The notes: generated by a model from the letters alone, not told the origin. 64,000 nucleotides of DNA from an uncultured Pseudobdellovibrionaceae bacterium (GCA_964400355.1 CAYNTO010000001.1:430019-494018); one strand, 5' to 3'; positions 8,670 to 33,351 are shown, numbered from the stretch's first letter. A program made the numbers and translations.

Positions 8670-8678
8670 GAGGAAACG

Positions 8679-12045: not shown

Positions 12046-12053
12046 GACGCGAG

Positions 12054-12674: not shown

Positions 12675-12684
12675 CGAACTTGTG

Positions 12685-13666: not shown

Positions 13667-13685
13667 CACTTCCGTAGCGGAAGTG
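13667..13685. repeat. REP-like palindrome CACTTCCGTAGCGGAAGTG
   Basis: Perfect 8-bp arms around a TAG centre, intergenic. The same core recurs at 28555..28579, with degenerate copies at 28712..28734, about 28795, 14365..14385 and 26976..26996. Confidence 0.6.
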
Positions 13686-13780
13686 ACTATAGCTTTGGGA
13701 TATGATTGACATAGCAACTATCAATTTTAACTATGGCGGTAGTTTTGCTAATACTCTCTTCAGGAAAAGGGAGGATCTTT

Positions 13781-14341
13781 ATGAAATCTATTATAATTTT
13801 ACTAGGTATGTTTTTTAGTCTTCACACTCAGGCCCAGTCGGTGCCTCCGCCAGCGGATCTAAAGCTGGTGAGCTTGGTGAATTTTGGTTTGCCGGCCCTA
13901 GCAGTGACGAACGTGTACGACAAAGTGCACGTGGTTTTGGATTCGGCGCTGTTGAATTACAGTGATAAAAATTTCGGCTTCGACCAGCTAGAAAATTATC
14001 AGGTGGAACTGACCAAAATGTTTCAAATGGACAGAGTCTCCGCACTCATTGTGAGCTTTGAACGCTCTGATTGTATCGTCGATAGCGCACAAAATGACGT
14101 TTTCTACTGTAAAGCGAACGGCCCGCGGGTAGTGATGGCTGCAGAAACCGATTTCTCAGGAAACGTTATCTCCACGAGCACGGTCAGTGTGATCGTCGAA
14201 GACGTGGATGTGAGCGTTCGTAAGGTGATAACCATTGAGCCCGGTTTCAGCGATACACGTTTTACAGTAGTTGCCCGCGTGTTTTTACCTACAGTGACGC
14301 TGTATTTGCAAAAAAGCAATCTGGCCAAACCCCAGTTTTAA
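13781..14341 (+). CDS. secreted hypothetical protein
   Basis: Track ORF trimmed to MKSIIILLGMFFSLHTQAQ. AAAGGGAGG RBS lies 6-7 nt upstream. Confidence 0.55.
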   Translation: MKSIIILLGMFFSLHTQAQSVPPPADLKLVSLVNFGLPALAVTNVYDKVHVVLDSALLNYSDKNFGFDQLENYQVELTKMFQMDRVSALIVSFERSDCIVDSAQNDVFYCKANGPRVVMAAETDFSGNVISTSTVSVIVEDVDVSVRKVITIEPGFSDTRFTVVARVFLPTVTLYLQKSNLAKPQF

Positions 14342-14473: not shown

Positions 14474-14965
14474 ATGAAGTTTGCCATGGATGTTACGCCA
14501 GGAAATAACAATGTGATCGTGGAAATAGCCGGCTATTTTGATGAGCACGCCGTACTATCGATAGATTTTCTGAACAACCTCACCGCTCCAGCGGACATTC
14601 ACGTGAGCTTCGAGCACCTTGTCTACATCAATTCGGTAGGGGTGCGCACGTGGATTCGATGGCTACAGACCGTAGAGAAAGTGGGACATGTTACACTTCA
14701 CCGATGTCCGGTGATCTTCGTGAGATCGCTCAATACTGTCTACGGAATGGTCAACACGCGCATGAAGGTGCAAAGCTTTTACGTTCCGTTTTACGATCCC
14801 GATTCGCAACAACGCCGCAATCTACTCATGGTGCACGGTACCGATTTTTTTGACGACGGCTCGTTGGTTATACCTTCGGTTAAAAATGACAACGATGTGG
14901 ATTTGGAATTAGATGTGCCCGAAACATATTTCACATTTTTGAACCATCAAAAGATAAAAAAATAA
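14474..14965 (+). CDS. STAS-like (SiaC / anti-sigma-antagonist-like) protein, paralogue 1
   Basis: 163 aa, paralogous to 25569..26039 (roughly one third identical by eye). STAS-type switch motif LVYINSVGVRTWIRWL (compare DSSG of SpoIIAA) plus a conserved C-terminal extension of about 70 aa (FYVPFYDP...VKNDNDVDLELDV..YFTFL). Confidence 0.6.
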   Translation: MKFAMDVTPGNNNVIVEIAGYFDEHAVLSIDFLNNLTAPADIHVSFEHLVYINSVGVRTWIRWLQTVEKVGHVTLHRCPVIFVRSLNTVYGMVNTRMKVQSFYVPFYDPDSQQRRNLLMVHGTDFFDDGSLVIPSVKNDNDVDLELDVPETYFTFLNHQKIKK

Positions 14966-15041: not shown

Positions 15042-15596
15042 ATGCGTAGAGCATTACGGCAAACAGTGCCGCTTTTATTGGTAGTCCCTTTTCTGATTTC
15101 TTGCGGTAAGGTCGCGGAAAATTGGGCGGGCATTCGCGAAGGGATCATTGATCTTTCCGATATTTTTACGGTGGTTTCTAAAACTACCGCTACGGCCGAT
15201 GGCTTTGATGAGTCGGAGCTTGTCATTCGAGTGCACGATAAAAACGGAACACCTAAAGAAAACAGAACGGTGTCTTTTTCAGCTGCGGTTGAGGCTGGTG
15301 TCAATCACATTTCATGTACCCCTTCGGATGCGCAAGGCCTGATCGTTTGTAAGGTCCGCGCCCATCGCGACGGAGTTAAAAATTTAAAAATGGCCGGGCG
15401 CGAACAGACAGTGCAATTGGAATTCACCCGCTCCTTTGACCAAGCTGCGCTGCTAGTGGATGAGGCGGGTGGCAGCCATATGACCACTGCAGCCGGTGGA
15501 GATCTGGTCACTGCAACTGCCGGTAAAAAATGGAGTCCGCCTTTAGTCACCCAGTCCGAAGCCACGTTGAGGGCGGACGTAAGTGTTGTATTTTAG
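15042..15596 (+). CDS. lipoprotein with bacterial Ig-like (Big_1/invasin-like) domain
   Basis: Lipobox PFLISCG. VVSKTTATADGFDESELVIRVHDKNGTPKENRTVSFS resembles invasin/intimin Ig-like repeats. Confidence 0.6.
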   Translation: MRRALRQTVPLLLVVPFLISCGKVAENWAGIREGIIDLSDIFTVVSKTTATADGFDESELVIRVHDKNGTPKENRTVSFSAAVEAGVNHISCTPSDAQGLIVCKVRAHRDGVKNLKMAGREQTVQLEFTRSFDQAALLVDEAGGSHMTTAAGGDLVTATAGKKWSPPLVTQSEATLRADVSVVF

Positions 15597-15712
15597 ACCA
15601 AACCTCGAAGTTTCTGTATTGGAGAAAATAAACTCTTAATATTTTCTCGTTTTGGGGCGCTCCAAAGGAGAATTCTCTCAATAATATTCGTGAAGCTCCG
15701 ATAAATATTAAA

Positions 15713-18700
15713 ATGCTGAAATTTTTGAGGAATCTCCCATTCATCGCCGCGAGCTTGCTCTTTGTGGTCGCATCTCAGCGGGTTCTCGCTCAGGTGCCGG
15801 AGACCTTCGTTTATCAAGGTCAAATTCTTAAAAACGGCACCACTCCCCTCGAAGCCGATCCGGTTCTGTTCCGCGTTCAAATTCTGTCTCAGACCAATGA
15901 TTGCATTCTGTTCGAGGAACAGCACTCGATCAATATGCTGGGCTCCTCGGGCGTTTTCAGTTTGAACGTCGGCGCTGGCATGCGTTCGGGCACGGACTAC
16001 GAGGATACCTCGAGTCTTACGAATGTATTTAGAAACGGCCAGTTGTTCACGGTCACTCATTGCACATCGGGCACAGCGTACAATGCGTTAGCAAATCATA
16101 CACGTAAGATGCGGATCAGCTACAACGATGGCAGCGGTTACGTAACTATCGCACAAGATTTTCACATGCAAGCCACACCTTTTGCATGGTACGCCAACAG
16201 TCTTCAGGGATTAACGCCGACAAATTTTGTACAGACCAATGCGGGACAAAATGTAACGCAGGCCAATCTCGAAACTCTCCTGGGCGGCACGAACTACACG
16301 AATCTTTTAGCTCTCGCTAGTGGTTCGAGTCCGTCATATGTGCAAGTGGGTACCAACGGTGCCAGTCTCCCCAGTTTTTCTACCGATCCTGTTTCTCCAA
16401 CGGAAGGCATGATTTGGTTCAACCAAACTACCAATAAAATCACCTTTCATGATGGAACTGGAATTCAAGAAATGAACACGAGCACTATCGATACCACCAA
16501 GCTTCCTCTTGCTGGCGGTACACTTACGGGCCCACTGGAACTGGGCGGAGCGCTCGATGCGGCGTCATTTGATCTTTTGAATGTGGGGCATATCACTATT
16601 GCCAATCAACACACGTTGCGTTTGGGTCGTTATGACAATCCCCAACAGACAGCGCTCTTACTCACTTTGGGCGTGGGGCATGCGGGTACAACTTGGTACA
16701 ATACGGATACCAACAAGCTTATGTATTGGACAGGAACAGCGTCACGCGAAGTGATTGATAACCTCACTCCGGGCGGTGATCATGGTGTGCTTACTGGTTT
16801 GGGCGACGACGATCATACACAATATGCCGCTCTTGCCGGTCGTGCTTCGGGTCAAAACCTGCGCGGTGGCACTGTGCCGAGTGGGAATCTAACGTTGGAA
16901 TCGACCACCGATGCGACAAAAGGTTTTGTTATTCTGCAGCCCAATGGTGGCAATGTAGGTATTGGAACGACCAATCCACTCTCTCTGTTGCATGTGAGTG
17001 GAACTGTTGGCTCCAGCGGTAACGATTCTGGATTCGAACTCCGTGATCGAAACAATATAAACTCTACCACACTTATGTATATGAATGCAGGCGCCTTTCA
17101 TTTCTACGAAGGCGGGGTGCATGGGGTAACCCTGGATGCATCCAACTCTCGACTAGGAATCGGTTTGAACAACTTTGTTAGCCATCTGAATCATGCCATT
17201 ATCTTGGGAGCTGGGTCGGACAACATCATCACCGCAGAACCGAACTGGACGGATCCTGGAAGAGATATTTCTTTAATAGCCGGTAGCCCTAATTCTGGTC
17301 ATAACGATCTTGATGGCGGAAAGTTGATCTTAAGCTCTGGCGGATCCACAGGCGTGGGAGAGTCCCAGATAGAATTTAAAACAGCCACGGCCGGCGTTTC
17401 CGGCTCGGCGCCAAATGCTCCTACCCTCAAGATGGTTGTAACCAGTGATGGCAGGGTGGGGATTGGTTCTGCGACTCCGCAATCGCTTCTCGATGTGGCC
17501 GGTATCATCCGCGCGGAGCAGATCTGCGATGAGACCGGATCTAACTGCAAAGATATATCCACAGGCTGGAGTACCGGTAACGTATCGACATCGCGTGCGA
17601 TCAACACCAATACAGGATCAGCGCTAACGGGCGGCGGTGATTTGTCCGCAGATCGCAATCTGGCGGTGAATGTGGACAACACAGGTATTGAGATTGATTC
17701 CAATGCATTGAGATTGAAAGATTTGGGAGTAAGCACAGGGAAGCTCGCCAACACTTCCGTAACGGAAGCGAAGCTTGCGAACAATGCGGTAACCAGCGCG
17801 AAGATCGTTGACGGCACTATTGTAAGTGCAGATGTGGACAACGTAAGTATCGGCAAGATCTCCAATGCTCCGGCTGAGTACTTTACCTACATGCCTGCAG
17901 GCAGTGAATGTACAGATGGATATGTGCTCAAGTGGACTTCCAGTGATCGTTGGGAATGTTCAACGGACCTGGTAGGTTCCACGGATCACGGTGCACTTAC
18001 GGGCCTCGGCGATGACGATCACACACAATATGCACTTCTCGCAGGTCGCGGAGCAGGACAAAACTTGCGCGGTGGCACTGCCGCCAGTGCGAATCTCACT
18101 CTCGAATCCACATCGGATGTCACAAAAGGCTACGTGCTTTTACAACCTAGTGGTGGGAGCGTCGGTATTGGTACTACAGCTCCGCATGCTTCCGCTGTTA
18201 TGCAAATGGCTTCTACGACCAAAGGTTTTTTGCCGCCAAGAATGACGAGAGCGCAACGCAACGCCATCGGCACTCCGACTCAGGGACTAATGGTCTTCAA
18301 TACTGACGATAGCACCTTGGATTACTATAGTGGTTCAGCTTGGTTGAGTCTAAATGGATCCCCCAAATACATGAAGCTTGGAATGTCGGGCGTTCAAACG
18401 GTTGATTTACATTCAGTCGTAGCGTTTGATTCAATAAGGTCCAATGGTGGCATGACGACATCCGCAAACGGAATCCAACTCAAGGCCGGCGTTACCTACA
18501 GACTGGAAGCGGCGGTAAATTCCTTTTCCTCCGATTCAAGCAATTTTCTTGGCTATCAGTTGCACGACGGGACTTCTTATTTTGGACAGGCAGCTTATAC
18601 TTCTGAACCAGAAAATGCCAATTATGGATTTAAAGCTCATCTGTTGGAGTTCTACACTCCGATCGCGGATGTCACAGTGACAGTAAGAATCATTGACGAC

Positions 18701-20458
18701 TCTATCGGGACGGGCCAGATTCACAGCGCGTGGAATACTTATTTTGTTGCTCAAGAAGTGGTGCCGTCTGGCCCCGGTGGTGGTGGTGGCAATGACAACA
18801 TGGGTAACCATGCCGCTAGTCAAAATCTCGCGTTGTCAGGATTCTGGCTTTCAAACGATGGCAATGCCGAAGGAATTAGCATAAGTAATTCTGGCAATGT
18901 GGGTATCGGATCCGATTCTCCAAACGCTCTCCTCGATGTTGCCGGTATTGTTCGCGCGCAACAGATTTGCGATGAAGCCGGTGCCAACTGTAAAGACATC
19001 TCCACAGGCTGGGGTGGTGGTGGAGACATGGATGGTGTGACCACGCATGCGACCACGTCTGGTCTATTAGGTGGCGCCACCAGTGGCACTGCCGACTTGA
19101 GCGTAGACACCGACAACTCCACGATTGAAATCAGCGGCTCCAATAAAGTGCGAATTAAAGATTTAGGTGTCACCTCCGCAAAAATCGCGGACAACGCCAT
19201 CACCTCTGCAAAAATAAATGATGGCGCGATCATGAACGCGGATATCAACGCTTCGGCGGCCATAGCCTGGAGCAAGATCGATAAAACCGGCGCTGCTGCG
19301 GGCGACGTAGGAGCTGTACCAAGTTCCAGAACTATAGCGACATCAGGAACATCGGGTTTGAGCGGTGGGGGAGACCTCACGGCGAATCGTTCACTTTCGG
19401 TGAACGTCGATGACACCACTGTAGAGCTCAACGCAAATGCACTAAGAGTGAAAGACAGCGGCATCACCAGTGCAAAGATCGCAAATGGCACTATCGTGAA
19501 TGCCGACATCGGCGGCGTGAATATTAGCAAGATCAACAGTGCCGCAACCGAGTACTTTACCTATATGCCAAACGGTGCCGAGTGTACCGATGGCTATGTG
19601 CTGAAGTGGACATCGAGCAATCGCTGGGAGTGTGCGACCGACATCGGTGTGACCGATCACGGCACCCTCGGGGGTCTTGGTGACGACGACCACACACAGT
19701 ACGCGCTGCTCGCTGGCCGCACTACAGGCCAAAATCTTCGCGGTGGCACGGCCGCCAATGCAAATCTCACATTAGAATCCACTTCGGACTCCACTAAAGG
19801 ATTTGTTCTCTTGCAGCCCAATGGTGGATATGTGGGCATTGGTGTTGCGACGCCCACATCGACGCTCGATGTGGCAGGTACGATCAATGCGGCCGGAAAT
19901 TTAACTACCAATTCTCTGCTCGCCATCGACAACGTGGGCGCATTGCCCAACGGAATGCTGTTTTCGTTTCGTTCCCACGGCGTGGAGGCCGGTTTCATCA
20001 TGACCTATACCGCCGATGAGTTGAACGGTGATATGCAGTTCTCAACACAGACTGCCGGCACCACGACTGAGAAGATGCGCATTCTCGCCAATGGCAATGT
20101 GGGTATCGGAACAGGGGTTCCTTTGACAAAATTGGATGTGGACGGCGCGATCAAGTCGGAAGCGGTATCCAATGCCGGGACTACGATCGACTTTCTAACG
20201 GGCAACATTCAGTACACCAGTTCTTCATGCACAGGATTTACGTTGAACAATTTGAAGAGTGGAGCAGTTTACACGCTGATCGTTCAAGGGACGGCGGGCG
20301 GCACGTGCTCGTTCACACCTTTTTCGGGAACTGGCTCTGGATCACTTACTCTCAAAACGGGTTCGGTAGGACTCATACAAACTGCAAGCACCCATATGGT
20401 GTTCTCCTTCATGGTGGCGGGTAGTTACGTTTACGTGACGTCGGTGGACGGGTACTAG
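15713..20458 (+). CDS. giant secreted modular fibre/adhesin (phage-tail-fibre-like, MAT-fibre-like)
   Basis: 1581 aa with signal peptide MLKFLRNLPFIAASLLFVVASQRVLAQ. Three DHG.L.GLGDDDHTQY...NLTLEST.D.TKG.V.LQP.GG.VGIG modules. Two Cys-neck motifs ICDE.G.NCKDISTGW. SAKI.DG repeat tracts. KGFLPPRMT..QR.AI..P..GLMVFNTDD knob motif. Confidence 0.85.
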   Translation: MLKFLRNLPFIAASLLFVVASQRVLAQVPETFVYQGQILKNGTTPLEADPVLFRVQILSQTNDCILFEEQHSINMLGSSGVFSLNVGAGMRSGTDYEDTSSLTNVFRNGQLFTVTHCTSGTAYNALANHTRKMRISYNDGSGYVTIAQDFHMQATPFAWYANSLQGLTPTNFVQTNAGQNVTQANLETLLGGTNYTNLLALASGSSPSYVQVGTNGASLPSFSTDPVSPTEGMIWFNQTTNKITFHDGTGIQEMNTSTIDTTKLPLAGGTLTGPLELGGALDAASFDLLNVGHITIANQHTLRLGRYDNPQQTALLLTLGVGHAGTTWYNTDTNKLMYWTGTASREVIDNLTPGGDHGVLTGLGDDDHTQYAALAGRASGQNLRGGTVPSGNLTLESTTDATKGFVILQPNGGNVGIGTTNPLSLLHVSGTVGSSGNDSGFELRDRNNINSTTLMYMNAGAFHFYEGGVHGVTLDASNSRLGIGLNNFVSHLNHAIILGAGSDNIITAEPNWTDPGRDISLIAGSPNSGHNDLDGGKLILSSGGSTGVGESQIEFKTATAGVSGSAPNAPTLKMVVTSDGRVGIGSATPQSLLDVAGIIRAEQICDETGSNCKDISTGWSTGNVSTSRAINTNTGSALTGGGDLSADRNLAVNVDNTGIEIDSNALRLKDLGVSTGKLANTSVTEAKLANNAVTSAKIVDGTIVSADVDNVSIGKISNAPAEYFTYMPAGSECTDGYVLKWTSSDRWECSTDLVGSTDHGALTGLGDDDHTQYALLAGRGAGQNLRGGTAASANLTLESTSDVTKGYVLLQPSGGSVGIGTTAPHASAVMQMASTTKGFLPPRMTRAQRNAIGTPTQGLMVFNTDDSTLDYYSGSAWLSLNGSPKYMKLGMSGVQTVDLHSVVAFDSIRSNGGMTTSANGIQLKAGVTYRLEAAVNSFSSDSSNFLGYQLHDGTSYFGQAAYTSEPENANYGFKAHLLEFYTPIADVTVTVRIIDDSIGTGQIHSAWNTYFVAQEVVPSGPGGGGGNDNMGNHAASQNLALSGFWLSNDGNAEGISISNSGNVGIGSDSPNALLDVAGIVRAQQICDEAGANCKDISTGWGGGGDMDGVTTHATTSGLLGGATSGTADLSVDTDNSTIEISGSNKVRIKDLGVTSAKIADNAITSAKINDGAIMNADINASAAIAWSKIDKTGAAAGDVGAVPSSRTIATSGTSGLSGGGDLTANRSLSVNVDDTTVELNANALRVKDSGITSAKIANGTIVNADIGGVNISKINSAATEYFTYMPNGAECTDGYVLKWTSSNRWECATDIGVTDHGTLGGLGDDDHTQYALLAGRTTGQNLRGGTAANANLTLESTSDSTKGFVLLQPNGGYVGIGVATPTSTLDVAGTINAAGNLTTNSLLAIDNVGALPNGMLFSFRSHGVEAGFIMTYTADELNGDMQFSTQTAGTTTEKMRILANGNVGIGTGVPLTKLDVDGAIKSEAVSNAGTTIDFLTGNIQYTSSSCTGFTLNNLKSGAVYTLIVQGTAGGTCSFTPFSGTGSGSLTLKTGSVGLIQTASTHMVFSFMVAGSYVYVTSVDGY

Positions 20459-20469
20459 GAGATGCTCCG

Positions 20470-21228
20470 ATGAAACGAAGGGATTTCATAATTGGCGCCA
20501 CGGCAGGTTTGCTTTACCCGCAGCTTTCAAAAGCGCAAACGCTACCATTCGCAAATTGGAATAAGAACGTTGCTTCGACGGCCACTATCCAGCGGACAGA
20601 CGGGGACACAGATACCGGCTCTACAAATTACTCCTTCTCCTCAAAAAGTATTGGAAGCGCCTCTTCCGATCGCTTGATCGTCGTCGTGGCATCTCTGAAA
20701 AACGACAACAACAGCACAACGCCCAATCCAACGTGCACAATCGCAGGCGGCGCCGCCACGCGAGTCGTTTTGGCCCATCAGGTTCCCAGTTCCTGGTGCG
20801 CTACATTTGCTATATTTTCTCGTGCCGTGCCCACGGGTACCACGGCGACCATTGCGATTAACAACTCTTCGCTCAATCAGACGTGCTGTATCGATGTGTA
20901 TGCTCTCAAAAATCTACGCTCGCATGCTCCCATCGTTGTGCGATCCACGGTAAAGGAAACCGGCACCAATACCACCTCCGACAACTTGACCTTTGGGACC
21001 CGTTACGGAGGCGTTGGCGTTGTTGGTATCTCCGATCCTTCGGCCACCAATCGCACCTATACTTGGACAAATGCAACCAAGGATTCCGAAGAATTTTTAG
21101 TGAGTGCGCAGAACTCCAGCGCGGCTCGCTTTACTGTCGCCTCGGGAGCGGCCGCATTCACCACCGTCACTGTTTCGATCAATATTAGCACGGAGACTTA
21201 TGCTTTTGGCGGCGCTTTCTGGCGCTAA
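20470..21228 (+). CDS. Tat-signal hypothetical protein coupled to the fibre gene
   Basis: MKRRDFIIGATAGLLYPQLSKAQ. AGGAG overlaps the fibre stop codon, and the ATG lies 11 nt after that stop. Ser/Thr/Asn-rich body with no recognised family. Confidence 0.6.
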   Translation: MKRRDFIIGATAGLLYPQLSKAQTLPFANWNKNVASTATIQRTDGDTDTGSTNYSFSSKSIGSASSDRLIVVVASLKNDNNSTTPNPTCTIAGGAATRVVLAHQVPSSWCATFAIFSRAVPTGTTATIAINNSSLNQTCCIDVYALKNLRSHAPIVVRSTVKETGTNTTSDNLTFGTRYGGVGVVGISDPSATNRTYTWTNATKDSEEFLVSAQNSSAARFTVASGAAAFTTVTVSINISTETYAFGGAFWR

Positions 21229-21322: not shown

Positions 21323-23125
21323 TTAGTTTGCAGTAGCGCGGCGTTTGATCACCACCACCGACACGTCGTCGGGGAGCGGAATGTCGCCCCTATAGGTATT
21401 GAACTCTTCAAGAGTGGCGGCCGAAACTTCTTTTGCAGATTTTAAAAATGTGATTTTTTTCGCGAGTTTTTTTCCAAAGCGCAGCTCGCTCAGAACTTGG
21501 CCATCGGGGCGTTCGATGGAAAAGAGGCCGTCGGTGTATATCACCAAAGTGTCTTGCGGACTCAGCGTGAACGACTGTTCGCGAAGGGTGCTGGGGATAT
21601 TATCGCCAATGCGGGCACTCGCCATCATGTGAACGTTGTCGACTTCGTAGCCGCCGTAATCTTTGTAGCGCATGAGATAGGGAGGTTCGTGACCGGCGTT
21701 CACGAAAGTTACATCTCCGGTTTTTGAATGGACGCGGTAGAGCTGGCCCGTCATCAACACCTCTTGGCGAGAGCAGCTGTAAACCGCATGATCCCAAATT
21801 CGCATCATTTCCAGTAATGGAATGTTTTCGTTTTCAATTCGAGAAAAAATTGAACGGGCGGCGGCGGTGATAAGTGCAGCTGGTGTTCCGTGGCCGGTGG
21901 CATCTGCAACGGCTACGTAAATGTACTCACCCTGCTGAAAGTAATACCACCAGTCACCACCACACTCGCTCGACGTCATTACGGTTCCGAAGACTTCGAT
22001 GGAATTGAAAGCATGGGATGATTGTTCCGGCAAAAGTTTTTCCTGTACATATGCCGCGGTCTTTAATTCCGCTTCCATGCGCGCTTTTTCGCGGGTTTCC
22101 AGGAGCAAACGTTGAATTTCGCGGATCATGCGACCAAAAGCGCCGGCCAATATACCGATTTCATCTTGAGATTGAATTTTGGGCCGATCGTCGAAAGTGC
22201 CTTCGGCGATTTCTTCGGCCCAGGCGGTGATGATTTTTAATCCGCTCGTCAGGAGCCTTGCCAAGGTGAGTGCGATTATCGTGAGAGCGAAAAAAGAAAG
22301 GACTAAGAAAATCAGAGAACGCGTGAACAACACATTGAGCGCTCCTAATGCCTCCGCCTCCGGAGTGAGAGACACCAATCGCAGTTTGTACGCCTTCATC
22401 TCTGTTTGGCTCATCAGAAAACGATGATCGTTATCGGTCACCAACTTGGTTTGCTCCACGCCTTCGGAGGATCGCGTTTTCGCCACATTCAAGAAGGTTT
22501 GTGGCTGAAGACCGCGCATATCAGAAACCGCCAAGATCGACATGTCCGTGTTCGACGTGTCTGAGAGAAGAGCGATAGAGTTCATCATGTCGGGTGTAGG
22601 GAGTAAATCCTTCGTCAACACCGCCAGACGAATTTGATATGTCCCGCGCGGGCCTTGATCGTACTTGAGACTTAATAGGAAGGTGTCTTTATTGATAAGG
22701 CGCAGATCCGCTTCGCCTACTCCTTTTGCGAATGTTTCCGCCACTGGCGGTAGTAATGACGGAACCTTCTCCAAACGAAATACGCTCTGTTTTGCCGTTT
22801 GATTCCAAAGTTCGATGGCCATCAAGTTTTTCTCGTCTTTAAAAATCTGTTGTCCCGCGGAATTCGGACGCCCCAAGTTGGGATCATAGGTGGCCACAAT
22901 GCTGCGTGCGGCGAGTAAAGACATTGCCAATTTACTCTCCACTTCGCTCTTAACCGATTGCAGGCGGGAATTTTGCGCGTCGAAGACGTAAGAGATTTTG
23001 TCGTTTTCGAAAACATTCTTGGCGATCAGAACGTACGATAAAATAAATACAAGACCGGTAGCGATCAACGCAAGAGTGAGTTTCCATTTGATGGAGGCGC
23101 TCTTCAGCAGATTTAATAATGCCAT
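21323..23125 (-). CDS. membrane sensor PP2C (SpoIIE/RsbU/SiaA-like) phosphatase with HAMP domain
   Basis: TM1, a periplasmic region of about 270 aa, TM2, HAMP (AEEIAEGTFDDRPKIQSQDEIGILAGAFGRMIREIQ), then PP2C motifs GGDWWYYF, ADATGHGTPAAL and YTDGLF. Start is ATG 23125 (MALLNLLKSASIKWKL), overlapping the upstream gene by 13 nt. Confidence 0.85.
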   Translation of the reverse strand: MALLNLLKSASIKWKLTLALIATGLVFILSYVLIAKNVFENDKISYVFDAQNSRLQSVKSEVESKLAMSLLAARSIVATYDPNLGRPNSAGQQIFKDEKNLMAIELWNQTAKQSVFRLEKVPSLLPPVAETFAKGVGEADLRLINKDTFLLSLKYDQGPRGTYQIRLAVLTKDLLPTPDMMNSIALLSDTSNTDMSILAVSDMRGLQPQTFLNVAKTRSSEGVEQTKLVTDNDHRFLMSQTEMKAYKLRLVSLTPEAEALGALNVLFTRSLIFLVLSFFALTIIALTLARLLTSGLKIITAWAEEIAEGTFDDRPKIQSQDEIGILAGAFGRMIREIQRLLLETREKARMEAELKTAAYVQEKLLPEQSSHAFNSIEVFGTVMTSSECGGDWWYYFQQGEYIYVAVADATGHGTPAALITAAARSIFSRIENENIPLLEMMRIWDHAVYSCSRQEVLMTGQLYRVHSKTGDVTFVNAGHEPPYLMRYKDYGGYEVDNVHMMASARIGDNIPSTLREQSFTLSPQDTLVIYTDGLFSIERPDGQVLSELRFGKKLAKKITFLKSAKEVSAATLEEFNTYRGDIPLPDDVSVVVIKRRATAN

Positions 23126-25374
23126 CGAATCACCATGAATCCTTCGCCCAGTCCCTCGCGATATGGCAGGCCTAACGGCGACGCCGTCTTTACACTTCCT
23201 GCTTCGAATAAGTGCAATCGATATCCACCACCAACAGCCCACTTGCGGTCGAAATAATAGTTCAGATTCCCAGTAAGCTCGTATTTTTGGCTGGAGTCAA
23301 ATCCATATCCTACAAGCGCTTCACCCGATAGATCCCAATAACGGTAGAACGGAAACAAAACGCCCAATCCCACTTTTGCCAAATTATATCCCGGTGAGAA
23401 CAATTGCGTGCCGCTGTTTTTGTAGTATTCGTAGCCGGCGATGAACGAAAGCTCAGAGCGAATGAGCGAATGCAGTGGATTGCTAGGGCCATACCACCGG
23501 TAGCGGTAGCGAGCTTCCACATGCAGCGGGGAATTGGACCCACTGGCCGCATCTTCGGAGCCGGCCACTTTGGCTTTCGCGAGGCCTTCAAGGCCATGGT
23601 GCTCTTTCCATTGAAGCCAGCGCAAACCTAATGTGTAGATACTCGGCGACGTCGTGCCCTGGCTGGCTTGATCCGCGGAAAACATGGAGAACTGGCCGGT
23701 CTCAACCGAAAAGCGGGAACGCAAATAATTGCGATTGTATTCTGCAGGTTTGCTGGAAAATGTCTGGCTCAACACGGGCACACTGGAAACATTGCGGGCG
23801 TGCACCGGGGCTGTCGTCTCGGGCGTGTAAACTTCGATTATAGCCCTGCTGACTTTCTTGGCTTTGCGGCCAAACTGATCCTGCGCAGTAAAAGCCACCT
23901 GGTAAATGCCGGCTTTATTCCAATTGAGCGAGTACGGAGAATTTTGAATCGTTTCTTCTTTGAGAACTGTTTCGGCGGAGTCAGTAATGCGGACGTCGTA
24001 CTTCCACAAGCGGTGAGAATTGTCCCAGTGTAGAGATACTGGAGTGTTTTCAGGAATTCGAATTTTAGATTTCGCAAGCTGTGGAGCCTCGGGAAAAGGC
24101 GGTCGCACCACTTTCACGGTGCGTGTGTCGGACACATGCGACAGCTGTAAGCGTTCATTCACTCCGCGAACGCGCAAGTACAATGTTTGTGGTTGTGTGG
24201 CGTTGAGCGAAATCTCCGCCGTCGATTGCCAGCTCACCTTTGTCGATGCGCGGGTGAACTCGGGAGATGTGGAAAGTTCCAGTAAATAATTCTTCCAAAT
24301 TCCGCCGACCGTTCCGTGAATTTGTACATCCTGGCCGAGCAGATACACCGTTTTTGCGGCGACAGTGATTTGTGGTGGGAGATCATCAAGAGGCAGCGAC
24401 TCTACGGTGAACTGATGGGGGTTGGACCACGTCTTTCCATCTACAGACAAGCGATAAAAATTCCCTCCGCGCACTGTCTGCGCAAAGAAGGCCTGCTTTT
24501 TATTTTGCGACTCCGAAAACGTCGATACAATCGCTGTGAATTCGCGGTCCGTCGACAACTCGCCGTAAACAGTGGAGGCCAAGAATTTATTCTCCCACTT
24601 TACAGGACCGGCGAAGGCCACCAGCTGCTTCGGCATGGCTCGCTGTACGAGTGCGCCATTGCTCTTTTCAAAAAAATCGTAGAGTTCATCGGTACGCCGG
24701 TAAATCGGTGCGCCGGCAATTGCCACCACGGCTTCTTGATCGACGACGGGCATATTCATCACCGGACGAGTGAGCGTATTGAGGGCCAACGATTTGTTTT
24801 TCTCAAGTGTCACGCTTCTGTTATTTGAGCGCACCGACGCATTTCCTTTGACGAGACGGATTTCTGGAGACTTGTTTTTGGAGAACACCACTTCTACTTG
24901 AGCATCGCTACCGTCGAACTCGAGTATCTCACCCTGAGCGGCGATGCGCATTTTACCCTGGATGTTAAGTTTGAAATTACCAAAAACCATGTTCGGAATT
25001 TGCACGCTGTTTTCACTGATAAACTTAATCAGCGAGTTCTGCTCGAGCGCAATCTCTTTGCCATTCGCCACTTTAATTTTCAATTTAGAACGCTTACCCG
25101 TAAACACGCTGTCGCCAGAATGGATGTCGGAACTCAAATCGGCTTTATTCCAAGTGAAGGAGGAGCTGAGACGACGGCGCACATCGTTTTCAGAATGAAC
25201 GATTTCGCCGATAATGCGACCCGAGTTTTGTGATGGTGAATTGTGGAAAAAGACCGAGAAGAGATCATCAGAAAACAAAAGTGCGCTACACACCAAAATT
25301 CCCAAAAGGCTTGTGATCAGAATCGCGCGATCTCTGCGATCGCTGTCTGCATTTTTAGACTGTGATGGTTTCAA
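23113..25374 (-). CDS. FecR-domain protein with Ig/FN3-like middle and C-terminal beta-barrel-like domain
   Basis: TTG start. N-terminal hydrophobic anchor AILITSLLGILVCSALLF. FecR-like GDSVFTGKRSKLKIKVANGKEIALEQNSLIKF. The last 220 aa or so are aromatic/Gly-rich alternating strands ending GFMVIRWHY. Confidence 0.6.
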   Translation of the reverse strand: MKPSQSKNADSDRRDRAILITSLLGILVCSALLFSDDLFSVFFHNSPSQNSGRIIGEIVHSENDVRRRLSSSFTWNKADLSSDIHSGDSVFTGKRSKLKIKVANGKEIALEQNSLIKFISENSVQIPNMVFGNFKLNIQGKMRIAAQGEILEFDGSDAQVEVVFSKNKSPEIRLVKGNASVRSNNRSVTLEKNKSLALNTLTRPVMNMPVVDQEAVVAIAGAPIYRRTDELYDFFEKSNGALVQRAMPKQLVAFAGPVKWENKFLASTVYGELSTDREFTAIVSTFSESQNKKQAFFAQTVRGGNFYRLSVDGKTWSNPHQFTVESLPLDDLPPQITVAAKTVYLLGQDVQIHGTVGGIWKNYLLELSTSPEFTRASTKVSWQSTAEISLNATQPQTLYLRVRGVNERLQLSHVSDTRTVKVVRPPFPEAPQLAKSKIRIPENTPVSLHWDNSHRLWKYDVRITDSAETVLKEETIQNSPYSLNWNKAGIYQVAFTAQDQFGRKAKKVSRAIIEVYTPETTAPVHARNVSSVPVLSQTFSSKPAEYNRNYLRSRFSVETGQFSMFSADQASQGTTSPSIYTLGLRWLQWKEHHGLEGLAKAKVAGSEDAASGSNSPLHVEARYRYRWYGPSNPLHSLIRSELSFIAGYEYYKNSGTQLFSPGYNLAKVGLGVLFPFYRYWDLSGEALVGYGFDSSQKYELTGNLNYYFDRKWAVGGGYRLHLFEAGSVKTASPLGLPYREGLGEGFMVIRWHY

Positions 25375-25568
25375 CGAATTCGCCCTTGTTGGTCAAATAT
25401 CAATATATATCTTTTTGCCAAACTGATGAATTTTTCATTCCATCTTTAGAGGGAAAGTGGATAAAGGTAGAGGTCGAGTTTTGAAAATGAAAGCCGGAAT
25501 ACACTCATGCCGTAGAAAGGTCGCGTAGAGGTTGGCAATGTTTCCCCGCTTGGTATGATTAAAAGGTA

Positions 25569-26039
25569 ATGAAACCATTCAGCACCTTAACTGAAATCAC
25601 ACCAACGGAAACCACGATCAAGGTCTTCGGTTATATCAATGAGTTTGCGCAATTCCCGGCATTTCCCACGACACCTAAGGTGATTGTGGATACGGAAGGC
25701 GTGACGGGAATGAACTCCGTAGGTACACGCAACTGGTGCAACTGGTTCGAGGGCGTGGGTCCGTCAACAAAAATTCTTCTTAGACACTGTCCCATCATAT
25801 TGGTAAAGAGTTTCAACCAGGTGAAGGGAAGTTATCCCAAACTTGCGGATGTGGAATCGTTCGCTGTTCCTTATTACTCGCCGTCGACCGATGAGGCGCG
25901 CAACGTATTTTTTAACAAAGGCACTGAGTACGTTAATGGTAAGGTCAATCTTCCACTCGTCAAAGACAATGACGGAAATGCCATGGATCTCGATGTGGAT
26001 CCACAAGCCTATTTCGCGTTCCTCGACAGACGCACGTGA
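25569..26039 (+). CDS. STAS-like (SiaC / anti-sigma-antagonist-like) protein, paralogue 2
   Basis: 156 aa with switch motif VTGMNSVGTRNWCNWF. It has the same C-terminal extension as paralogue 1 (FAVPYYSP...VKDNDGNAMDLDV..YFAFL). A kinase-like gene follows 14 nt downstream. Confidence 0.6.
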   Translation: MKPFSTLTEITPTETTIKVFGYINEFAQFPAFPTTPKVIVDTEGVTGMNSVGTRNWCNWFEGVGPSTKILLRHCPIILVKSFNQVKGSYPKLADVESFAVPYYSPSTDEARNVFFNKGTEYVNGKVNLPLVKDNDGNAMDLDVDPQAYFAFLDRRT

Positions 26040-26052
26040 GCACAGCCTACGT

Positions 26053-26952
26053 ATGATTTCAATCTATGACAGATATATTCAGTTCTTCCCAGAAAATTCG
26101 CGAGATGCGCTAAAGTCCTTGTTGCGATCCATCGAAACGGTTCTTTTGCCTTCGGAAGCGCATTTGGCTACTAAAGTTCTCCGTCGCGAGAACACAATCG
26201 TCGTATTGGAAAAAGGTGGAATGATCGAGTGTTTGCCTTTGATCGCCCTGGGTTTTCAACACTTTCTGCATTCATCCCGTGAGGACTTTTCACAGGAGCT
26301 TCTGGCCACCGCGATTATGATCAGCAAACCCAAATCATTCGCGAACGATCCGTTCGCTTTCTTTTTTAACGGACTTCGTGCATCTCCCGATCCGGCTCAC
26401 CAAAATATGCGCTGTACGTTTTCGAAAAACTCGGAAAAGTTGGCTCAACTTCAAAAGTTGGATGAGTTTTTAAAAACGCATCCCAAGGGTGCACGTCTTT
26501 CCGAGGTGATTGTGCAAGTGGCCGACGAGATGATCAGCAACGCTTTGTTCAGTGCACCCCGCGACAGACAGAATTTGGCTATGTATCAACATTTGCCCAG
26601 AACAAGCGATGTGAGCATGGCCGAAGGAAAAGAAGTGACTTTTTTTTCCTCCATGAATGATGAGCGCATCATTGTTGGTTGCGAAGACCTGTACGGCAGT
26701 ATGGACAGGGATCACATCATTAAAAATTTAAAGCGCATTTTTGATGGAGAACTCACAAAACCACACATGGGTTCCGCCGGCGCCGGTTTTGGCCTCCGCT
26801 ACATGATCGAAAACTCAGCCAGTTTTTACATGTACTGTGAACGCAACACGCGATCGGTGGTGGCTTGTGGATTCCTGCTCAAGGGAATGCGCTCGAACCT
26901 CACCATCGATCGCCATCTGCATATCGGGATACCCCAAGCGCCTCAGTTTTAG
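26053..26952 (+). CDS. RsbW/SpoIIAB/SiaB-like serine kinase (HATPase_c-like) with unknown N-terminal domain
   Basis: Track ORF 25843..26952 trimmed to ATG 26053 (MISIYDRYIQ). N-box-like VADEMISNALFSAP and G2-box-like GSAGAGFGLRYMIENS. The N-terminal 130 aa or so are unassigned. Confidence 0.6.
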   Translation: MISIYDRYIQFFPENSRDALKSLLRSIETVLLPSEAHLATKVLRRENTIVVLEKGGMIECLPLIALGFQHFLHSSREDFSQELLATAIMISKPKSFANDPFAFFFNGLRASPDPAHQNMRCTFSKNSEKLAQLQKLDEFLKTHPKGARLSEVIVQVADEMISNALFSAPRDRQNLAMYQHLPRTSDVSMAEGKEVTFFSSMNDERIIVGCEDLYGSMDRDHIIKNLKRIFDGELTKPHMGSAGAGFGLRYMIENSASFYMYCERNTRSVVACGFLLKGMRSNLTIDRHLHIGIPQAPQF

Positions 26953-26954: not shown

Positions 26955-26997
26955 CTTCCTAGAGTGAAAGCTCTATCACTTTCCGTGTAGCCGTGCG
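26955..26997 (+). repeat. 43-nt direct repeat, copy B (pairs with 14344..14386)
   Basis: CTTCCTAGAGTGAAAGCTCTATCACTTTCCGTGTAGCCGTGCG. It begins 3 nt after a stop codon, just as copy A does. Confidence 0.6.
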
Positions 26998-27018
26998 TGC
27001 AAACGCGCGGCTATTTTT
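26991..27018 (+). terminator. rho-independent terminator (weaker)
   Basis: CCGTGCG-TGCAAA-CGCGCGG stem (one G-U pair) followed by CTATTTTT. Confidence 0.5.
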
Positions 27019-27070
27019 AGCTAAAAGGGGCGTCACGTTTTGGTCGAATCGCGGTGGAGCGGCAGCGAAC

Positions 27071-28483
27071 TTATTGCGGTTTAAAGCGATAGATATGGCC
27101 ATCTCGCGAACCCACTACAATATGACCATTCCATACGGCGGGAGTGCTCTCGATGCAGCCTCCCGATTGCATTTTGAAGTGGCTCAACTCTTGGGGCGCC
27201 ATCGGGTTGTCGATGTTGTAGATTTTAAATCCACCGGGAGAGCATGTACCCACGAGCAAGCGATTGCCGATAACGATCGGCGACGACCAGGCGTGGAAGC
27301 CGATATCGAGAGTGGAGACGACCTCACCAGTTTCTTTGCTCACAGTGAGGAGATCGCCTTTGTGGGTGGCGGCGTAAATCACATCTTTACCAAGGGCGGG
27401 TGTGGCCCACAAACCGCCGACAGTGTTGTTGCCGGTGCGCACGTCGACCTTCCAGACGAGGGGGTTTTCTTTGTCGTACGGGTTGAGTTTTACCAGCTGG
27501 CCCACATCACGCGCTTGTTTGAGGAATCGCTCGTATTCGGCGGCCACATAAACAAAGCCATCGCTGTCCACCATCGGTGTGGCGTCCACATCATCGCCCA
27601 TCCAAAAATCGAACACGATTTCTGGTAAAAGATCTTTCACGTTTTTCAGATCTACGCCGAGTACACGACCCGCAGAGTTGGTCATGTACACGCGGCTTTC
27701 AAAAAGGGCCACAGAACTTTCGATGCTCGCGTTGCGATCGCCCGCATTTTGCAGCAGTTCTTTGTTCCAACCGCGCATACGCGCCTGAATCTCGGGCTTT
27801 ACACTCACTTTTCCCTGAGCATCCATTTGACGATTTAACTTCCAAGTGTAGAACCATCCGTTTTCGCCGCCGAAGATAAGATGATCGTTCACCACCGAAG
27901 AGTTACCATCCCAATCGTTGTTCCAAATGGTTTCGGGCACGCCGTCTTTAGCGTCGAGCGCCCAAATAAGTTCGGCCTCTTGGTTTTGCAGAGAGAGAAT
28001 GCGGTATTTGTTATCGCGCGAACCAAAGTACATCAGCGGAAAGCCATTGGGGTCGATGGTCACTGAGCCTTTGATGATGTCGCCGGTTTTGAATGGCTTG
28101 CGCGTGGCCTCGCCGGTTTCGAAATCGATAAAGTGGACGGAGCGATCATAAGTGCCAACGATAATTTCCATGCGGCCATCGGGGCGTTTCCAAATAGCGG
28201 GTTGGCCCGTCCATCCGCTGCCACACCAGGTTTTCCCATCGGATTGCGCACACATTCCACTTTTCGGGTAACGCCAATCCACTTGGTAGGCGTCGGCGAG
28301 CGGTCCTTGCCCGTACCAAGTGCGCGTGGGGTTGCCACGAAACTGGAGCAAACCTTCTGCCTCACCCCAAGGTTGTCCTACACTAGAAGGGGCGACATAC
28401 ACGTCGATCGCAAGCGCAGAAATAGAAAAGGAAAAACCAGCAAGAGCGAGAGATATTTTTTTAAGCATGAGCAATTTGTACAT
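27071..28483 (-). CDS. secreted PQQ-like / BamB-like beta-propeller repeat protein
   Basis: Signal peptide LALAGFSFSISALA. Repeated W/G-rich blades (GQPAIW, GGENGWFYTW, VGGLWATPA, VVGSRDGHIYRF) typical of PQQ-like propellers. Confidence 0.7.
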   Translation of the reverse strand: MYKLLMLKKISLALAGFSFSISALAIDVYVAPSSVGQPWGEAEGLLQFRGNPTRTWYGQGPLADAYQVDWRYPKSGMCAQSDGKTWCGSGWTGQPAIWKRPDGRMEIIVGTYDRSVHFIDFETGEATRKPFKTGDIIKGSVTIDPNGFPLMYFGSRDNKYRILSLQNQEAELIWALDAKDGVPETIWNNDWDGNSSVVNDHLIFGGENGWFYTWKLNRQMDAQGKVSVKPEIQARMRGWNKELLQNAGDRNASIESSVALFESRVYMTNSAGRVLGVDLKNVKDLLPEIVFDFWMGDDVDATPMVDSDGFVYVAAEYERFLKQARDVGQLVKLNPYDKENPLVWKVDVRTGNNTVGGLWATPALGKDVIYAATHKGDLLTVSKETGEVVSTLDIGFHAWSSPIVIGNRLLVGTCSPGGFKIYNIDNPMAPQELSHFKMQSGGCIESTPAVWNGHIVVGSRDGHIYRFKPQ

Positions 28484-32003: not shown

Positions 32004-33185
32004 TCATGACTTCTTTTTGATATCAATCTCTAGTTTAGAGCCTTCAGTTTTCCAAGTGGAGCTGATGCCAGTGGATGTATTTATATTTTCTTCCCAGTCG
32101 GACTGGACGCCCGACTGGATCCCTTTGAGTTTGAGATTGAAATTGTCTGGGTTGCTACAGTTGGCCAGCGCTTCCTCGATGGTCACGTAACCTTTGGCAA
32201 CCAGCTTGAGCAAGCTTTGGTCGAAACTACGCATACCCGATTCTTTAGCACTGGTTTCCAGTGCGTCGCGAATGCCGCCTGTTTTTTCTGGATCTTCGAT
32301 CATTTCTTTTACGCGTTGGTTATTCACTAAAATTTCCGTGGCGGGAATTAAACCTTGGCCATCTTTGCGCGTGAGTAGGCGTTGGCTCACCACAGCCTTT
32401 AAAACCGCAGCCAGTTGGCGCCGCACTTGTTCGTGTTGATGCGGGGGAAATTGCGCGATGATGCGGTTGATGGTTTCTTGCGCATCCATGGTGTGCAGAG
32501 TGGAAAACACCAAGTGACCGGTTTCGGCGGCGAGCATCGCGGTTTCGATCGTCTCTCTGTCGCGCATCTCGCCGAGTAAAATCACATCCGGGTCTTGGCG
32601 AAGAGTGGCGCGCATAGAATCCGAAAAAGAACGCATATCCACACCCAACTCGCGCTGAGAGACAATACTTTTGCGATCCTTAATGAGATATTCAATGGGA
32701 TCTTCCAGAGTAATGATGTGCAAATTCTTTGTTTGATTGATGTGATTGACCATCGCCGCAAGTGTCGTCGATTTTCCGCTCCCCGTAACGCCCGTCACTA
32801 GCACCAGGCCGCGTTCGTTCTCGGCAATGTACTTTACTGTTTGCGGGAGGTGGAGTTCGTCGATGGTGGGTACATTCTGATTGATCACGCGAATGACAAA
32901 GCGGGTGGAGCTGCGTTGGCGAAAAACGTTCACGCGAAAGCGCGCCACACCTTTTATCTCTAAACCCTTGTCCAACTCGAGGTGCTCCGCCAAGCGGCGC
33001 AGTTCCTCTGGTGTGAGAATGGACTGTACCATTTTTTCCATTTGTTCTGCGGTGATTGGGAACGACTGCGGACTGAGAGGACGAAGCATTCCGAACTTAC
33101 GCACTACCGGTACGAGTCCGACTTTTAGATGAATATCGCTTGCGCCCAGTTCGGCCGCTTGTTTGAGAATATCGTTCATTTCCAT
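32004..33185 (-). CDS. pilT: type IV pilus retraction ATPase PilT family
   Basis: ELGASDIHLKVG N-terminus, Walker A GVTGSGKSTTLAAM, Asp box, Walker B ILLGEMRD and His box TGHLVFSTLHT. Start at MEMNDIL (33185, or 33179). Track ORF extends to 33302. Confidence 0.85.
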   Translation of the reverse strand: MEMNDILKQAAELGASDIHLKVGLVPVVRKFGMLRPLSPQSFPITAEQMEKMVQSILTPEELRRLAEHLELDKGLEIKGVARFRVNVFRQRSSTRFVIRVINQNVPTIDELHLPQTVKYIAENERGLVLVTGVTGSGKSTTLAAMVNHINQTKNLHIITLEDPIEYLIKDRKSIVSQRELGVDMRSFSDSMRATLRQDPDVILLGEMRDRETIETAMLAAETGHLVFSTLHTMDAQETINRIIAQFPPHQHEQVRRQLAAVLKAVVSQRLLTRKDGQGLIPATEILVNNQRVKEMIEDPEKTGGIRDALETSAKESGMRSFDQSLLKLVAKGYVTIEEALANCSNPDNFNLKLKGIQSGVQSDWEENINTSTGISSTWKTEGSKLEIDIKKKS

Positions 33186-33351
33186 AGGGCTGATCTCATT
33201 ATTGCGATAAGGACAAGCAGTGTCGACAACATTTTTAGACGAAGCCCAGAGAACACCTTTGCGACGCGAGCTCTCGGCGCTTGATTTCATGTCGGTACTC
33301 ATCGATTCTCTGAACTTGCGCTCAAACGCGGGGGATTTTATTCATAGGTTA

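Follow-up and report, generated by a model that had tools for sequence, protein, structure and literature searches.

What is a phosphatase of the partner-switching kind doing beside an envelope protein, and which target does it serve when no known output gene is encoded nearby? The question is raised by a four-gene locus (positions 21,323 to 26,952) in a 64,000-nucleotide (nt) stretch of DNA from an uncultured Pseudobdellovibrionaceae bacterium (GCA_964400355.1, CAYNTO010000001.1:430019-494018), hereafter the window, with a G+C content of about 49%. The minus strand carries the genes of a FecR-like envelope protein and of a membrane phosphatase of the PP2C type, whereas the divergent plus-strand genes code for a small STAS protein (STAS1) and an anti-sigma-like kinase; a paralogue, STAS2, lies apart from them. 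With a probability of about 0.7, the four genes are read here as one envelope-to-cytoplasm partner-switching module. The features of the locus are as follows, with protein lengths in amino acids (aa).

21323..23125, minus strand: PP2C sensor phosphatase, 600 aa; transmembrane segment, periplasmic part of about 220 aa, transmembrane segment, HAMP, coiled coil, PP2C (SpoIIE-type)
23113..25374, minus strand: FecR-like envelope protein, 753 aa; signal or anchor, FecR-like beta domain, Ig/PKD-like middle, possible C-terminal outer-membrane beta-barrel
25375..25568, no strand: divergent intergenic region, 194 nt, separating the FecR-like/PP2C unit from the STAS1/kinase unit
25532..25559, plus strand: sigma-70-like promoter match, TTGGCA-16-TATGAT with an upstream TG, 10 of 12 positions
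25569..26039, plus strand: STAS1, 156 aa; STAS fold, predicted phospho-acceptor Ser50, C-terminal beta-ribbon
26053..26952, plus strand: kinase, 299 aa; N-terminal alpha/beta domain of about 110 aa and GHKL (SpoIIAB/RsbW-type) ATP-binding domain
26987..27014, plus strand: intrinsic-terminator-like hairpin, 12-bp stem with 7 G-C pairs and a T-run, 35 nt past the kinase stop
14474..14965, plus strand: STAS2, 163 aa; paralogue of STAS1 with Ser54 and no kinase of its own

All four open reading frames (ORFs) of the original prediction stand, and two other assemblies of this genome, with genes called independently, give the same four (600, 753, 156 and 319 aa). The spacing given in the original prediction is also correct. 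The TAA stop of the FecR-like gene overlaps the ATG of the PP2C gene by 13 nt, and the kinase starts at ATG 26053, 14 nt past the STAS1 stop, leaving a gap of 13 nt. The automatic call of the kinase begins at the upstream ATG 25993 (319 aa); the start at 26053 is preferred because 20 of 20 kinase homologues begin at the equivalent position. STAS1 and the kinase look like a two-gene unit, since a promoter-like match precedes STAS1 and a strong hairpin with a T-run follows the kinase. The promoter-like match just ahead of STAS1 is the best in 15 kb. As the element driving the STAS1 side it is only suggestive, because the intergenic region as a whole holds fewer promoter matches than its shuffled versions. 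No notable repeats were found in that region. An ORF at 26993..27628 was rejected as a third gene of the operon; it lies past the terminator and opposite a PQQ-propeller gene, and is absent from the independent annotations.

The assignments of the kinase and of STAS1 rest on structure prediction, because searches with sequence models found nothing useful. No name or accession came from looking up the window proteins among sequence clusters either. The kinase has no match in Pfam (E ≤ 5, HATPase_c and HATPase_c_2 included), in NCBIfam (E ≤ 0.1) or among the PDB sequences, and a profile of its family run with hmmsearch finds no PDB sequence; a fused relative, P0252, matches HATPase_c at E 0.0019. 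The AlphaFold model of the kinase (predicted local distance difference test, pLDDT, 88.8; predicted template-modelling score 0.88) was built from the only 21 homologues returned by a word-indexed search. Residues ~115-299 superpose on SpoIIAB (template-modelling score 0.76-0.79 on the target, 0.79 for 1til_E) at a Foldseek probability of 1.0, and 1tid_A, RsbW 6m37 and UsfX 8ih8 are matched at the same probability. The model has the Bergerat ATP-binding fold with its N, G1 and G2 boxes, and the invariant residues of the family are Q155, D158-E159-x3-N163 in the N box, D212-x-x-G215-S216 in G1 and G245-x-G247 in G2. The protein is thus modelled as a GHKL serine kinase of the SpoIIAB/RsbW type, in agreement with the RsbW-like label it had received from the sequence. 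The extra N-terminal domain pointed out at the same time is real but is not peculiar to the window copy: residues 1-110 form an alpha/beta domain without a Pfam match, found family-wide, the second half of which (G67...F103) is strongly conserved. Its interpretation as a receiver was rejected, as superposition with LvrC/LvrB (REC plus HATPase) gives a root-mean-square deviation above 20 Å and there is no conserved acidic pocket. The kinase family counts 2359 representatives at E ≤ 1e-3 among 1.84 billion cluster representatives.

STAS1 is likewise without a match in Pfam (E ≤ 5), NCBIfam (E ≤ 0.1) and, by phmmer, the PDB sequences; the Pfam STAS models (PF01740/PF13466) and TIGR00377 do not match it. 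A profile of its family gives weak matches among the PDB sequences to the STAS proteins MlaB and TM1442 (E 0.005-0.01). The predicted structure is clearer. The AlphaFold model (pLDDT 95.2) has as its top Foldseek matches SpoIIAA (1thn_B/1th8_B), RsbV (6m36), RsfB (8ih8) and the antagonist 4qtp, all with probability 1.0, so that the proposed STAS-like identity is upheld by fold where the sequence models are silent. The family motif is I-N-S-x-G-x-R-x-W, and N49, S50, G52, R54 and W56 are invariant in 121 sequences. In the model Ser50 opens helix 50-61 and thus lies at the N-terminus of helix alpha-2, a position that we take to be the site of the phosphorylated serine in the SpoIIAA and RsbV structures. 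According to these models STAS1 would be the STAS-fold substrate of the kinase.

A search with the single STAS1 sequence returns 4 matches, and an alignment made from locus translations finds 485 homologues, none with a Pfam domain and a few labelled "anti-anti-sigma" or "MlaB" by JGI. Residues ~97-156 of STAS1 are modelled as an added beta-ribbon and helix. In most relatives this part may be a zinc ribbon, as suggested by the two or more CxxC motifs that 75 of 120 family members keep in their C-terminal half. The Bdellovibrio-type copies, STAS1 and STAS2 among them, have all four ribbon cysteines replaced.

The second STAS paralogue noticed in the window is genuine. STAS2 is 34% identical to STAS1 (BLASTP E 5e-28), matches the hidden Markov model (HMM) of the STAS family at E 8e-43 and carries the same motif, with Ser54 as the serine. 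It also gives matches below threshold to the anti-sigma-antagonist model TIGR00377 (E 0.0087, 15.9 bits against a cut-off of 53) and to STAS_2 (E 0.12). A six-frame HMM scan of the window finds exactly one kinase and two STAS genes, and two or more STAS genes near a single kinase occur in 13 other loci. STAS2 is probably a second substrate of the same kinase.

The PP2C protein is the only one of the four with firm family matches. Pfam SpoIIE (E 1.7e-30, 106.9 bits) and HAMP (E 3.7e-10, 40.4 bits) both lie well above their cut-offs of 25 bits, and the metal-binding motifs are complete, aspartates included: GGDW(389), DATGHG(408), TDG(531) and DDVS(586). Two hydrophobic segments, at residues ~14-39 and ~258-301, flank a stretch of about 220 aa, the predicted periplasmic part, which has no Pfam match. 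The transmembrane-periplasmic-transmembrane-HAMP-PP2C architecture, already read from the sequence, is therefore confirmed, and the protein is predicted to be an active-looking phosphatase with a periplasmic sensor domain.

The 753-aa protein is less clear. The original prediction described it as a FecR-domain and barrel protein, and this label is reasonable, plausible but weak, and unproven, all of its Pfam matches lying below threshold. The N-terminal 205 aa reach 21.8 bits with FecR (cut-off 24, E 2.6e-4), the Ig-like PKD model is matched at E 0.006, and the C-terminal 233 aa match OMP_b-brl (PF13505) at E 0.016 (15.8 bits, cut-off 28.7). This C-terminal part is 16% aromatic, ends in ...IRWHY with a terminal tyrosine, and scores 42 for amphipathic beta structure against 23±9 in shuffled sequences, about 2 standard deviations above them. 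A homologue at locus L020 gives a similar FecR score (PF04773, 21.4 bits) and ends in ...GIGF. The only hydrophobic segment spans residues 15-44, and the ~15 residues before it leave no room for a cytoplasmic anti-sigma domain. An adjacent gene for a sigma factor of the extracytoplasmic function (ECF) type was looked for among the ORFs of at least 140 aa at ~4-45 kb of the window, hereafter the neighbourhood scan, and none was found.

Whether these genes belong together was addressed by comparison with relatives. A profile scan of species-representative genomes gave 80 loci, and exact-protein look-ups added 13 contexts. All 80 loci belong to Bdellovibrionota or to Myxococcota, with one that bears no label beyond "Deltaproteobacteria" counted among the latter. 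The kinase-STAS pair is conserved almost only in these two phyla. By probe mapping, 68 of 88 loci have a STAS gene no further than 700 nt from the kinase, most often overlapping it by 4 nt, and seven representative proteins are fusions of the two, in both orders. The folds, the intact motifs, this adjacency and the fusions together bear out the partner-switching logic of PP2C, STAS and kinase. Two Bdellovibrionaceae metagenome-assembled genomes (L001 and L024) have no STAS gene beside the kinase. Upstream of the kinase in L001 (9417-9932) is an unrelated 171-aa protein, 8% identical to STAS1, which by eye resembles an HPt sequence without the histidine; that locus is flanked by HD-GYP and MCP/CheR genes.

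The relatives were sorted into three arrangements. Type I, to which the window belongs, has the order STAS, kinase and variable neighbours. Type II, found in at least 15 Bdellovibrionales/Oligoflexia genomes and in the metagenome loci L096 and L097, is a longer series: transmembrane-HAMP-PP2C, kinase, STAS, a PAS-HPt-HATPase kinase, a CheY-like REC protein and a REC-DUF4388-DnaJ-TPR protein, with the FecR-like gene, where present, divergent from it. The STAS and HPt-kinase matches are ~4-15 nt apart, and no HisKA match was found in the PAS-HPt-HATPase kinase. The Type II cluster has the look of an undescribed pathway, chemosensory- or polarity-like, with the partner switch as its gate. Conserved clusters of this kind, of six to eight genes, were seen in Bdellovibrionales/Oligoflexia metagenome-assembled genomes at L033-L039, L043, L045, L052, L055, L059, L060, L062, L063, L096 and L097. 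In Type III, mainly from Kofleriaceae and also from other Myxococcota, a REC-GGDEF-EAL gene is divergent from kinase and STAS, in this order.

A PP2C domain occurs within 7 kb in 26 loci with a strict probe, and in 36 by looser clustering that includes fragmentary or spurious ORFs. The PP2C genes recur by the pair in several gene orders and three architectures: transmembrane-HAMP; PAS-PP2C following a separate REC gene; and giant proteins combining a Ser/Thr kinase (STK), STAND, GAF and PP2C. In L013, in L091 and in the Type II clusters, a full-length homologue of the window phosphatase adjoins the kinase/STAS pair. The giant proteins (L002, L009, L016, L028 and L090; ~1400-1740 aa, with a STAND NTPase of the AAA_16 type) are encoded divergently from, or convergently with, STAS-kinase pairs, L002 being clipped at the contig end; they appear to be an alternative cytoplasmic input to the same switch.

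A FecR-like N-terminal domain adjoins PP2C or kinase genes in eight other loci (L013, L020, L033, L043, L055, L060, L063 and L091), in four relative arrangements. The most telling is L091, in which STAS, kinase, FecR-like and transmembrane-HAMP-PP2C genes follow one another in a single operon; its kinase is 38% identical to that of the window, and the order from FecR-like to PP2C is the same in both. L013 and L020 are partial versions of the four-gene set. In a metagenome search with the FecR-like N-terminal domain, every match with enough flank was divergent from the same transmembrane-periplasmic-HAMP sensor. Four of these loci are independent (L095-L097 and L099), L094 being a duplicate of L063. 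A scan of all loci with the FecR-like HMM added no member, and the 384-aa protein of L093 was not matched; nor does BLASTP relate to the FecR-like protein the 892-aa protein of L085 or the 547-aa protein of L086, both encoded downstream of related pairs. The envelope link to the module that had been proposed for the window is borne out by the eight other loci, the L091 operon included.

Because proximity is kept while gene order is shuffled, there is good evidence from these comparisons that the four genes work together. Conservation of the neighbourhood in relatives, which had been named as the check on the original prediction, is found in part: the kinase-STAS pair is kept and all four genes stand together in L091, but the order is shuffled and the neighbours are variable. 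The same data bear on a first rival explanation, according to which the FecR-like/PP2C and STAS1/kinase units are mere neighbours, STAS1 being dephosphorylated by a phosphatase encoded elsewhere and the PP2C protein acting on another substrate. The two units are indeed divergent in the window and so separately transcribed, and window-type pairs are found in very varied surroundings, many with no PP2C in reach (L003, L085-L087, L092 and L093). On the other hand, L011, L013, L091 and no fewer than 15 Type II clusters have a homologous transmembrane-HAMP-PP2C gene standing by a kinase/STAS pair, in differing orders and orientations, and the single L091 operon holds all four genes. Mere neighbourhood is therefore regarded as quite improbable.

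The output of the module was sought in the window and then in the relatives. The neighbourhood scan found no sigma factor, GGDEF, EAL or HD-GYP gene, in line with the original prediction that no known output gene is near. The only other signaling gene within its reach is a hybrid histidine kinase (36374..39754, minus strand; CHASE3-GAF-HisKA-HATPase with three receiver domains), 9.4 kb from the module. In the relatives, the Type II clusters couple the switch to an HPt kinase, and in L010, L012, L017 and L021 a Type I pair has as neighbours an HPt kinase and another kinase/STAS set. At L099 (5-1840, minus strand) a transmembrane-periplasmic-HAMP sensor is fused directly to a PAS-HPt kinase, with the FecR-like gene divergent, and PP2C, kinase and STAS are all absent. 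This domain swap suggests that in Type II information flows from the sensor through PP2C, kinase and STAS to the HPt kinase. Enzymes of cyclic di-GMP (c-di-GMP) metabolism are the other recurrent neighbours: besides the Type III gene, they flank Type I pairs as FHA-GGDEF (L004), REC-HD-GYP (L011) and HD-GYP (L001).

By association with these paralogous clusters, the likeliest output of the window module is a signaling enzyme encoded elsewhere in the genome, from an HPt-kinase pathway or of c-di-GMP metabolism; each of the two candidates, taken singly, is given well below an even chance. A canonical output consistently encoded beside orthologues had been named as evidence against an undescribed system. 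This partly applies, but only to the paralogous clusters; beside the closest orthologous pairs no output gene recurs consistently.

A transcriptional output must also be weighed. In the classical anti-sigma arrangement the kinase would sequester a sigma factor encoded elsewhere, with STAS1 as its antagonist. The best structural matches are indeed anti-sigma and antagonist pairs (SpoIIAB-SpoIIAA, RsbW-RsbV and UsfX-RsfB), and an ECF sigma gene lies divergently upstream of the pair in L004. However, this is the only sigma gene beside a pair among the Pfam-annotated related loci, and there is none in the neighbourhood scan of the window. Clustering of the neighbours of 85 loci yields no recurrent cluster identified as a sigma factor; the recurrent ones are HPt kinases, REC proteins and c-di-GMP enzymes. 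The kinase also has the conserved extra N-terminal domain, which SpoIIAB and RsbW lack. An anti-sigma role is thus held to be a long shot.

The remaining rival concerns the fibre operon (15042..21228, plus strand) that lies directly beside the module and includes these two genes.

15042..15596, plus strand: Big_1 Ig-like protein
15713..20458, plus strand: chimeric fibre of the mosaic adhesive trimer (MAT) type, 1581 aa; NCBIfam NF053851 at 5e-39 (N-terminus)

The N-terminus of this fibre is of the Bdellovibrio kind and marks the window as DNA of a Bdellovibrio-like predator. Past the MAT gene, at a distance of 11 nt, begins an ORF of 252 aa that matches no family. That the module controls this fibre through STAS2 and/or STAS1, and hence prey recognition, is very unlikely: STAS2 lies directly upstream of the Big_1 and MAT genes, the PP2C gene converges on the operon end, a match to the MAT N-terminus is found ~5 kb from the pair in L011, and a giant He_PIG/Kelch surface protein is encoded directly downstream of PP2C in L091, but such a neighbour is present in only 2-3 of ~90 loci (about chance if a genome has some 20 fibre genes, an assumed number), a STAS2 orthologue beside a fibre gene was found nowhere else, and the MAT paper mentions no such regulators. 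The fibre link was judged unsupported with these 2-3 loci. Thus the second STAS gene and the fibre operon, offered originally as the nearest candidate outputs, have no support beyond adjacency, and the relatives point instead to HPt kinases with CheY-like proteins and to c-di-GMP enzymes. A defence-system reading was discarded, as the PADLOC models matched none of the five proteins.

Several points weigh against the reading of the four genes as one module. The neighbours of the closest orthologous pairs vary widely, and in the probe map 10 of the 32 window-type loci have a PP2C domain within 7 kb, so that the window PP2C may not be the sole phosphatase, or may not be the cognate one. Of the ~90 loci from kinase-centred searches, no more than 9 carry the FecR-like gene. 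No curated sequence model recognises STAS1 or the kinase, their assignment coming from predicted structures and motifs, and the FecR and barrel assignments are both below threshold. It is paralogous clusters of other genomes that provide the associations with HPt kinases and c-di-GMP enzymes. Finally, the kinase, phosphatase and binding activities are all predictions from sequence and structural models.

If the module works as proposed, the kinase would use ATP to phosphorylate Ser50 of STAS1 (Ser54 of STAS2) and thereby keep the switch protein inactive. An envelope or periplasmic cue would be sensed by the periplasmic domain of the phosphatase, and the co-translated FecR-like/Ig/outer-membrane protein would probably share in the sensing; that the FecR-like protein is an input to the switch is given somewhat less than an even chance. 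The signal would then pass through the HAMP domain and activate the PP2C domain, which would take the phosphate off STAS. Subsequently, the unphosphorylated STAS protein would bind the kinase, or use its C-terminal ribbon domain to bind a target protein, or do both. The target is not a sigma factor encoded at the locus; from the associations in related clusters, it would most likely be a signaling enzyme encoded elsewhere in the genome, such as a PAS-HPt-HATPase histidine kinase with its CheY-like and REC-PATAN-DnaJ regulators, or a c-di-GMP-metabolising enzyme.

A wider reading, doubtful at present, is that the locus is one case of an unrecognised trans-envelope system specific to Bdellovibrionota and Myxococcota, in which a FecR-like/Ig/barrel protein gates a transmembrane PP2C phosphatase with targets other than sigma factors. 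On this reading the phosphatase would act via a STAS protein with a zinc ribbon and a GHKL kinase of two domains, and the switch would control, for instance, an HPt-type kinase/PATAN polarity pathway or c-di-GMP enzymes. If it were true, contact with the envelope or with prey would be coupled to predator behaviour, possibly including the deployment of the neighbouring MAT fibre.

Other genes of the window touch the module less closely. A PilT/T2SSE-type ATPase (32004..33302, minus strand) is encoded 5 kb from the kinase, and eight Myxococcota loci (within L069-L082) have a similar one at ~3.5 kb from theirs, beside the REC-GGDEF-EAL gene; the nearness is probably due to clade synteny and coincidence. 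A run of ORFs of 382, 221, 258 and 202 aa (10897..14341) and two of 580 and 586 aa (41218..44722) have no Pfam match. A gene pair at 7014..9968 (plus strand) carries domains that were originally reported from planctomycetes, with DUF1592/DUF1588/DUF1595 (PSD4, PSCyt3 and PSD5) in the first protein and DUF1552 (HXXSHH) in the second.

Little is established on the way in which cues from the envelope or from contact with prey are converted into behaviour by Bdellovibrio-like predators. The module provides concrete candidates for the envelope sensing step in predatory bacteria, and the clusters seen at the family level suggest that a membrane sensor can be connected to an HPt-type histidine kinase by a partner switch. 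Partner switches are well known, but this large kinase/STAS family, with at least 485 STAS homologues, is invisible to Pfam and NCBIfam, and the genome scan finds it mostly among bacteria with a predatory or social way of life (Bdellovibrionota and Myxococcota). Literature searches on Bdellovibrio with partner switching or STAS returned no paper describing the system, and the (zinc-)ribbon extension of the STAS protein, the extra kinase domain and the FecR-like envelope partner are unreported in the literature searched. The module is genuine, a divergent and so far undescribed form of a mechanism already known.

The closest counterpart in logic and architecture is SiaABC(D) of P. aeruginosa, in which a phosphatase with two transmembrane segments, HAMP and PP2C is joined by a small STAS-related switch protein and the anti-sigma-like kinase that phosphorylates it, and the output is an interaction between proteins instead of a sigma factor (PMC7647112, PMC8457831). 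The window phosphatase has the same parts as SiaA and is likewise accompanied by a small STAS-related protein and an anti-sigma-like kinase. The structure closest to SiaC, 4QTP (PMC7647112), is also among the top Foldseek matches of STAS1. Similar wiring has been predicted for Campylobacterota (PMC9239204). The likeness to SiaA/B/C and RsbU/V/W drawn in the original prediction therefore stands for logic and fold and fails for Sia family membership. The SiaA model NF038263 gives 65 bits against a cut-off of 700 (E 5e-18), in the HAMP-PP2C part only, and neither the SiaB-family kinase nor DUF1987 (SiaC) is matched by the kinase or STAS1 in NCBIfam (E ≤ 0.1) or Pfam (E ≤ 5). The phospho-site is a serine in an N-S-x-G motif here and Thr68 in the Sia system. 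No diguanylate cyclase is co-operonic as SiaD is, the terminator following straight after the kinase and the neighbourhood scan holding no GGDEF gene. The window side, in turn, adds the STAS extension, the N-terminal kinase domain and the FecR-like partner.

By fold, the nearest systems are SpoIIAA/RsbV and SpoIIAB/RsbW of Bacillus. RsbU/V/W and SpoIIE/AA/AB give the best structural matches for the kinase and STAS1, the phosphatase is of the SpoIIE type, and the serine at the N-terminus of helix alpha-2 is shared with SpoIIAA and RsbV. On the other hand, there is no sigma target at the window locus, L004 being the only one of the Pfam-annotated related loci with a sigma gene beside the pair, and the Pfam STAS and HATPase_c_2 models fail to detect the window proteins. 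In the model of STAS1 helix alpha-1 is replaced by a loop and a ribbon domain of 60 aa is added, and the kinase is twice the size of SpoIIAB.

Two further systems, HptB-HsbR-HsbA-HsbD of P. aeruginosa and BgrU/BgrW/BgrV-BgrR of Sinorhizobium meliloti, have a STAS protein that controls a diguanylate cyclase or links to an HPt or two-component pathway (as summarised in PMC8457831 and PMC7647112). The likeness lies in the neighbours of the family: HPt kinases, REC proteins and GGDEF-EAL or HD-GYP enzymes. HsbR, however, fuses kinase and phosphatase to a receiver, whereas in the window the two are separate, the phosphatase is a transmembrane sensor, and the sequence families differ.

The FecA-FecR-FecI system shares with the locus a FecR-like periplasmic domain after an N-terminal membrane segment and a gene coupled to one for signaling at the cytoplasmic membrane; by this analogy, the coupling of the FecR-like and PP2C genes suggests a transfer of signal from the outer envelope. 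It differs in that the window has no N-terminal anti-sigma domain, ECF sigma gene or TonB-dependent transducer, its FecR match is below threshold, and the downstream partner is a PP2C phosphatase instead of a sigma factor such as FecI. The family is thus different from all the systems compared, and is set apart by its STAS ribbon, its additional kinase domain, its FecR-like partner and its frequent coupling to HPt kinases.

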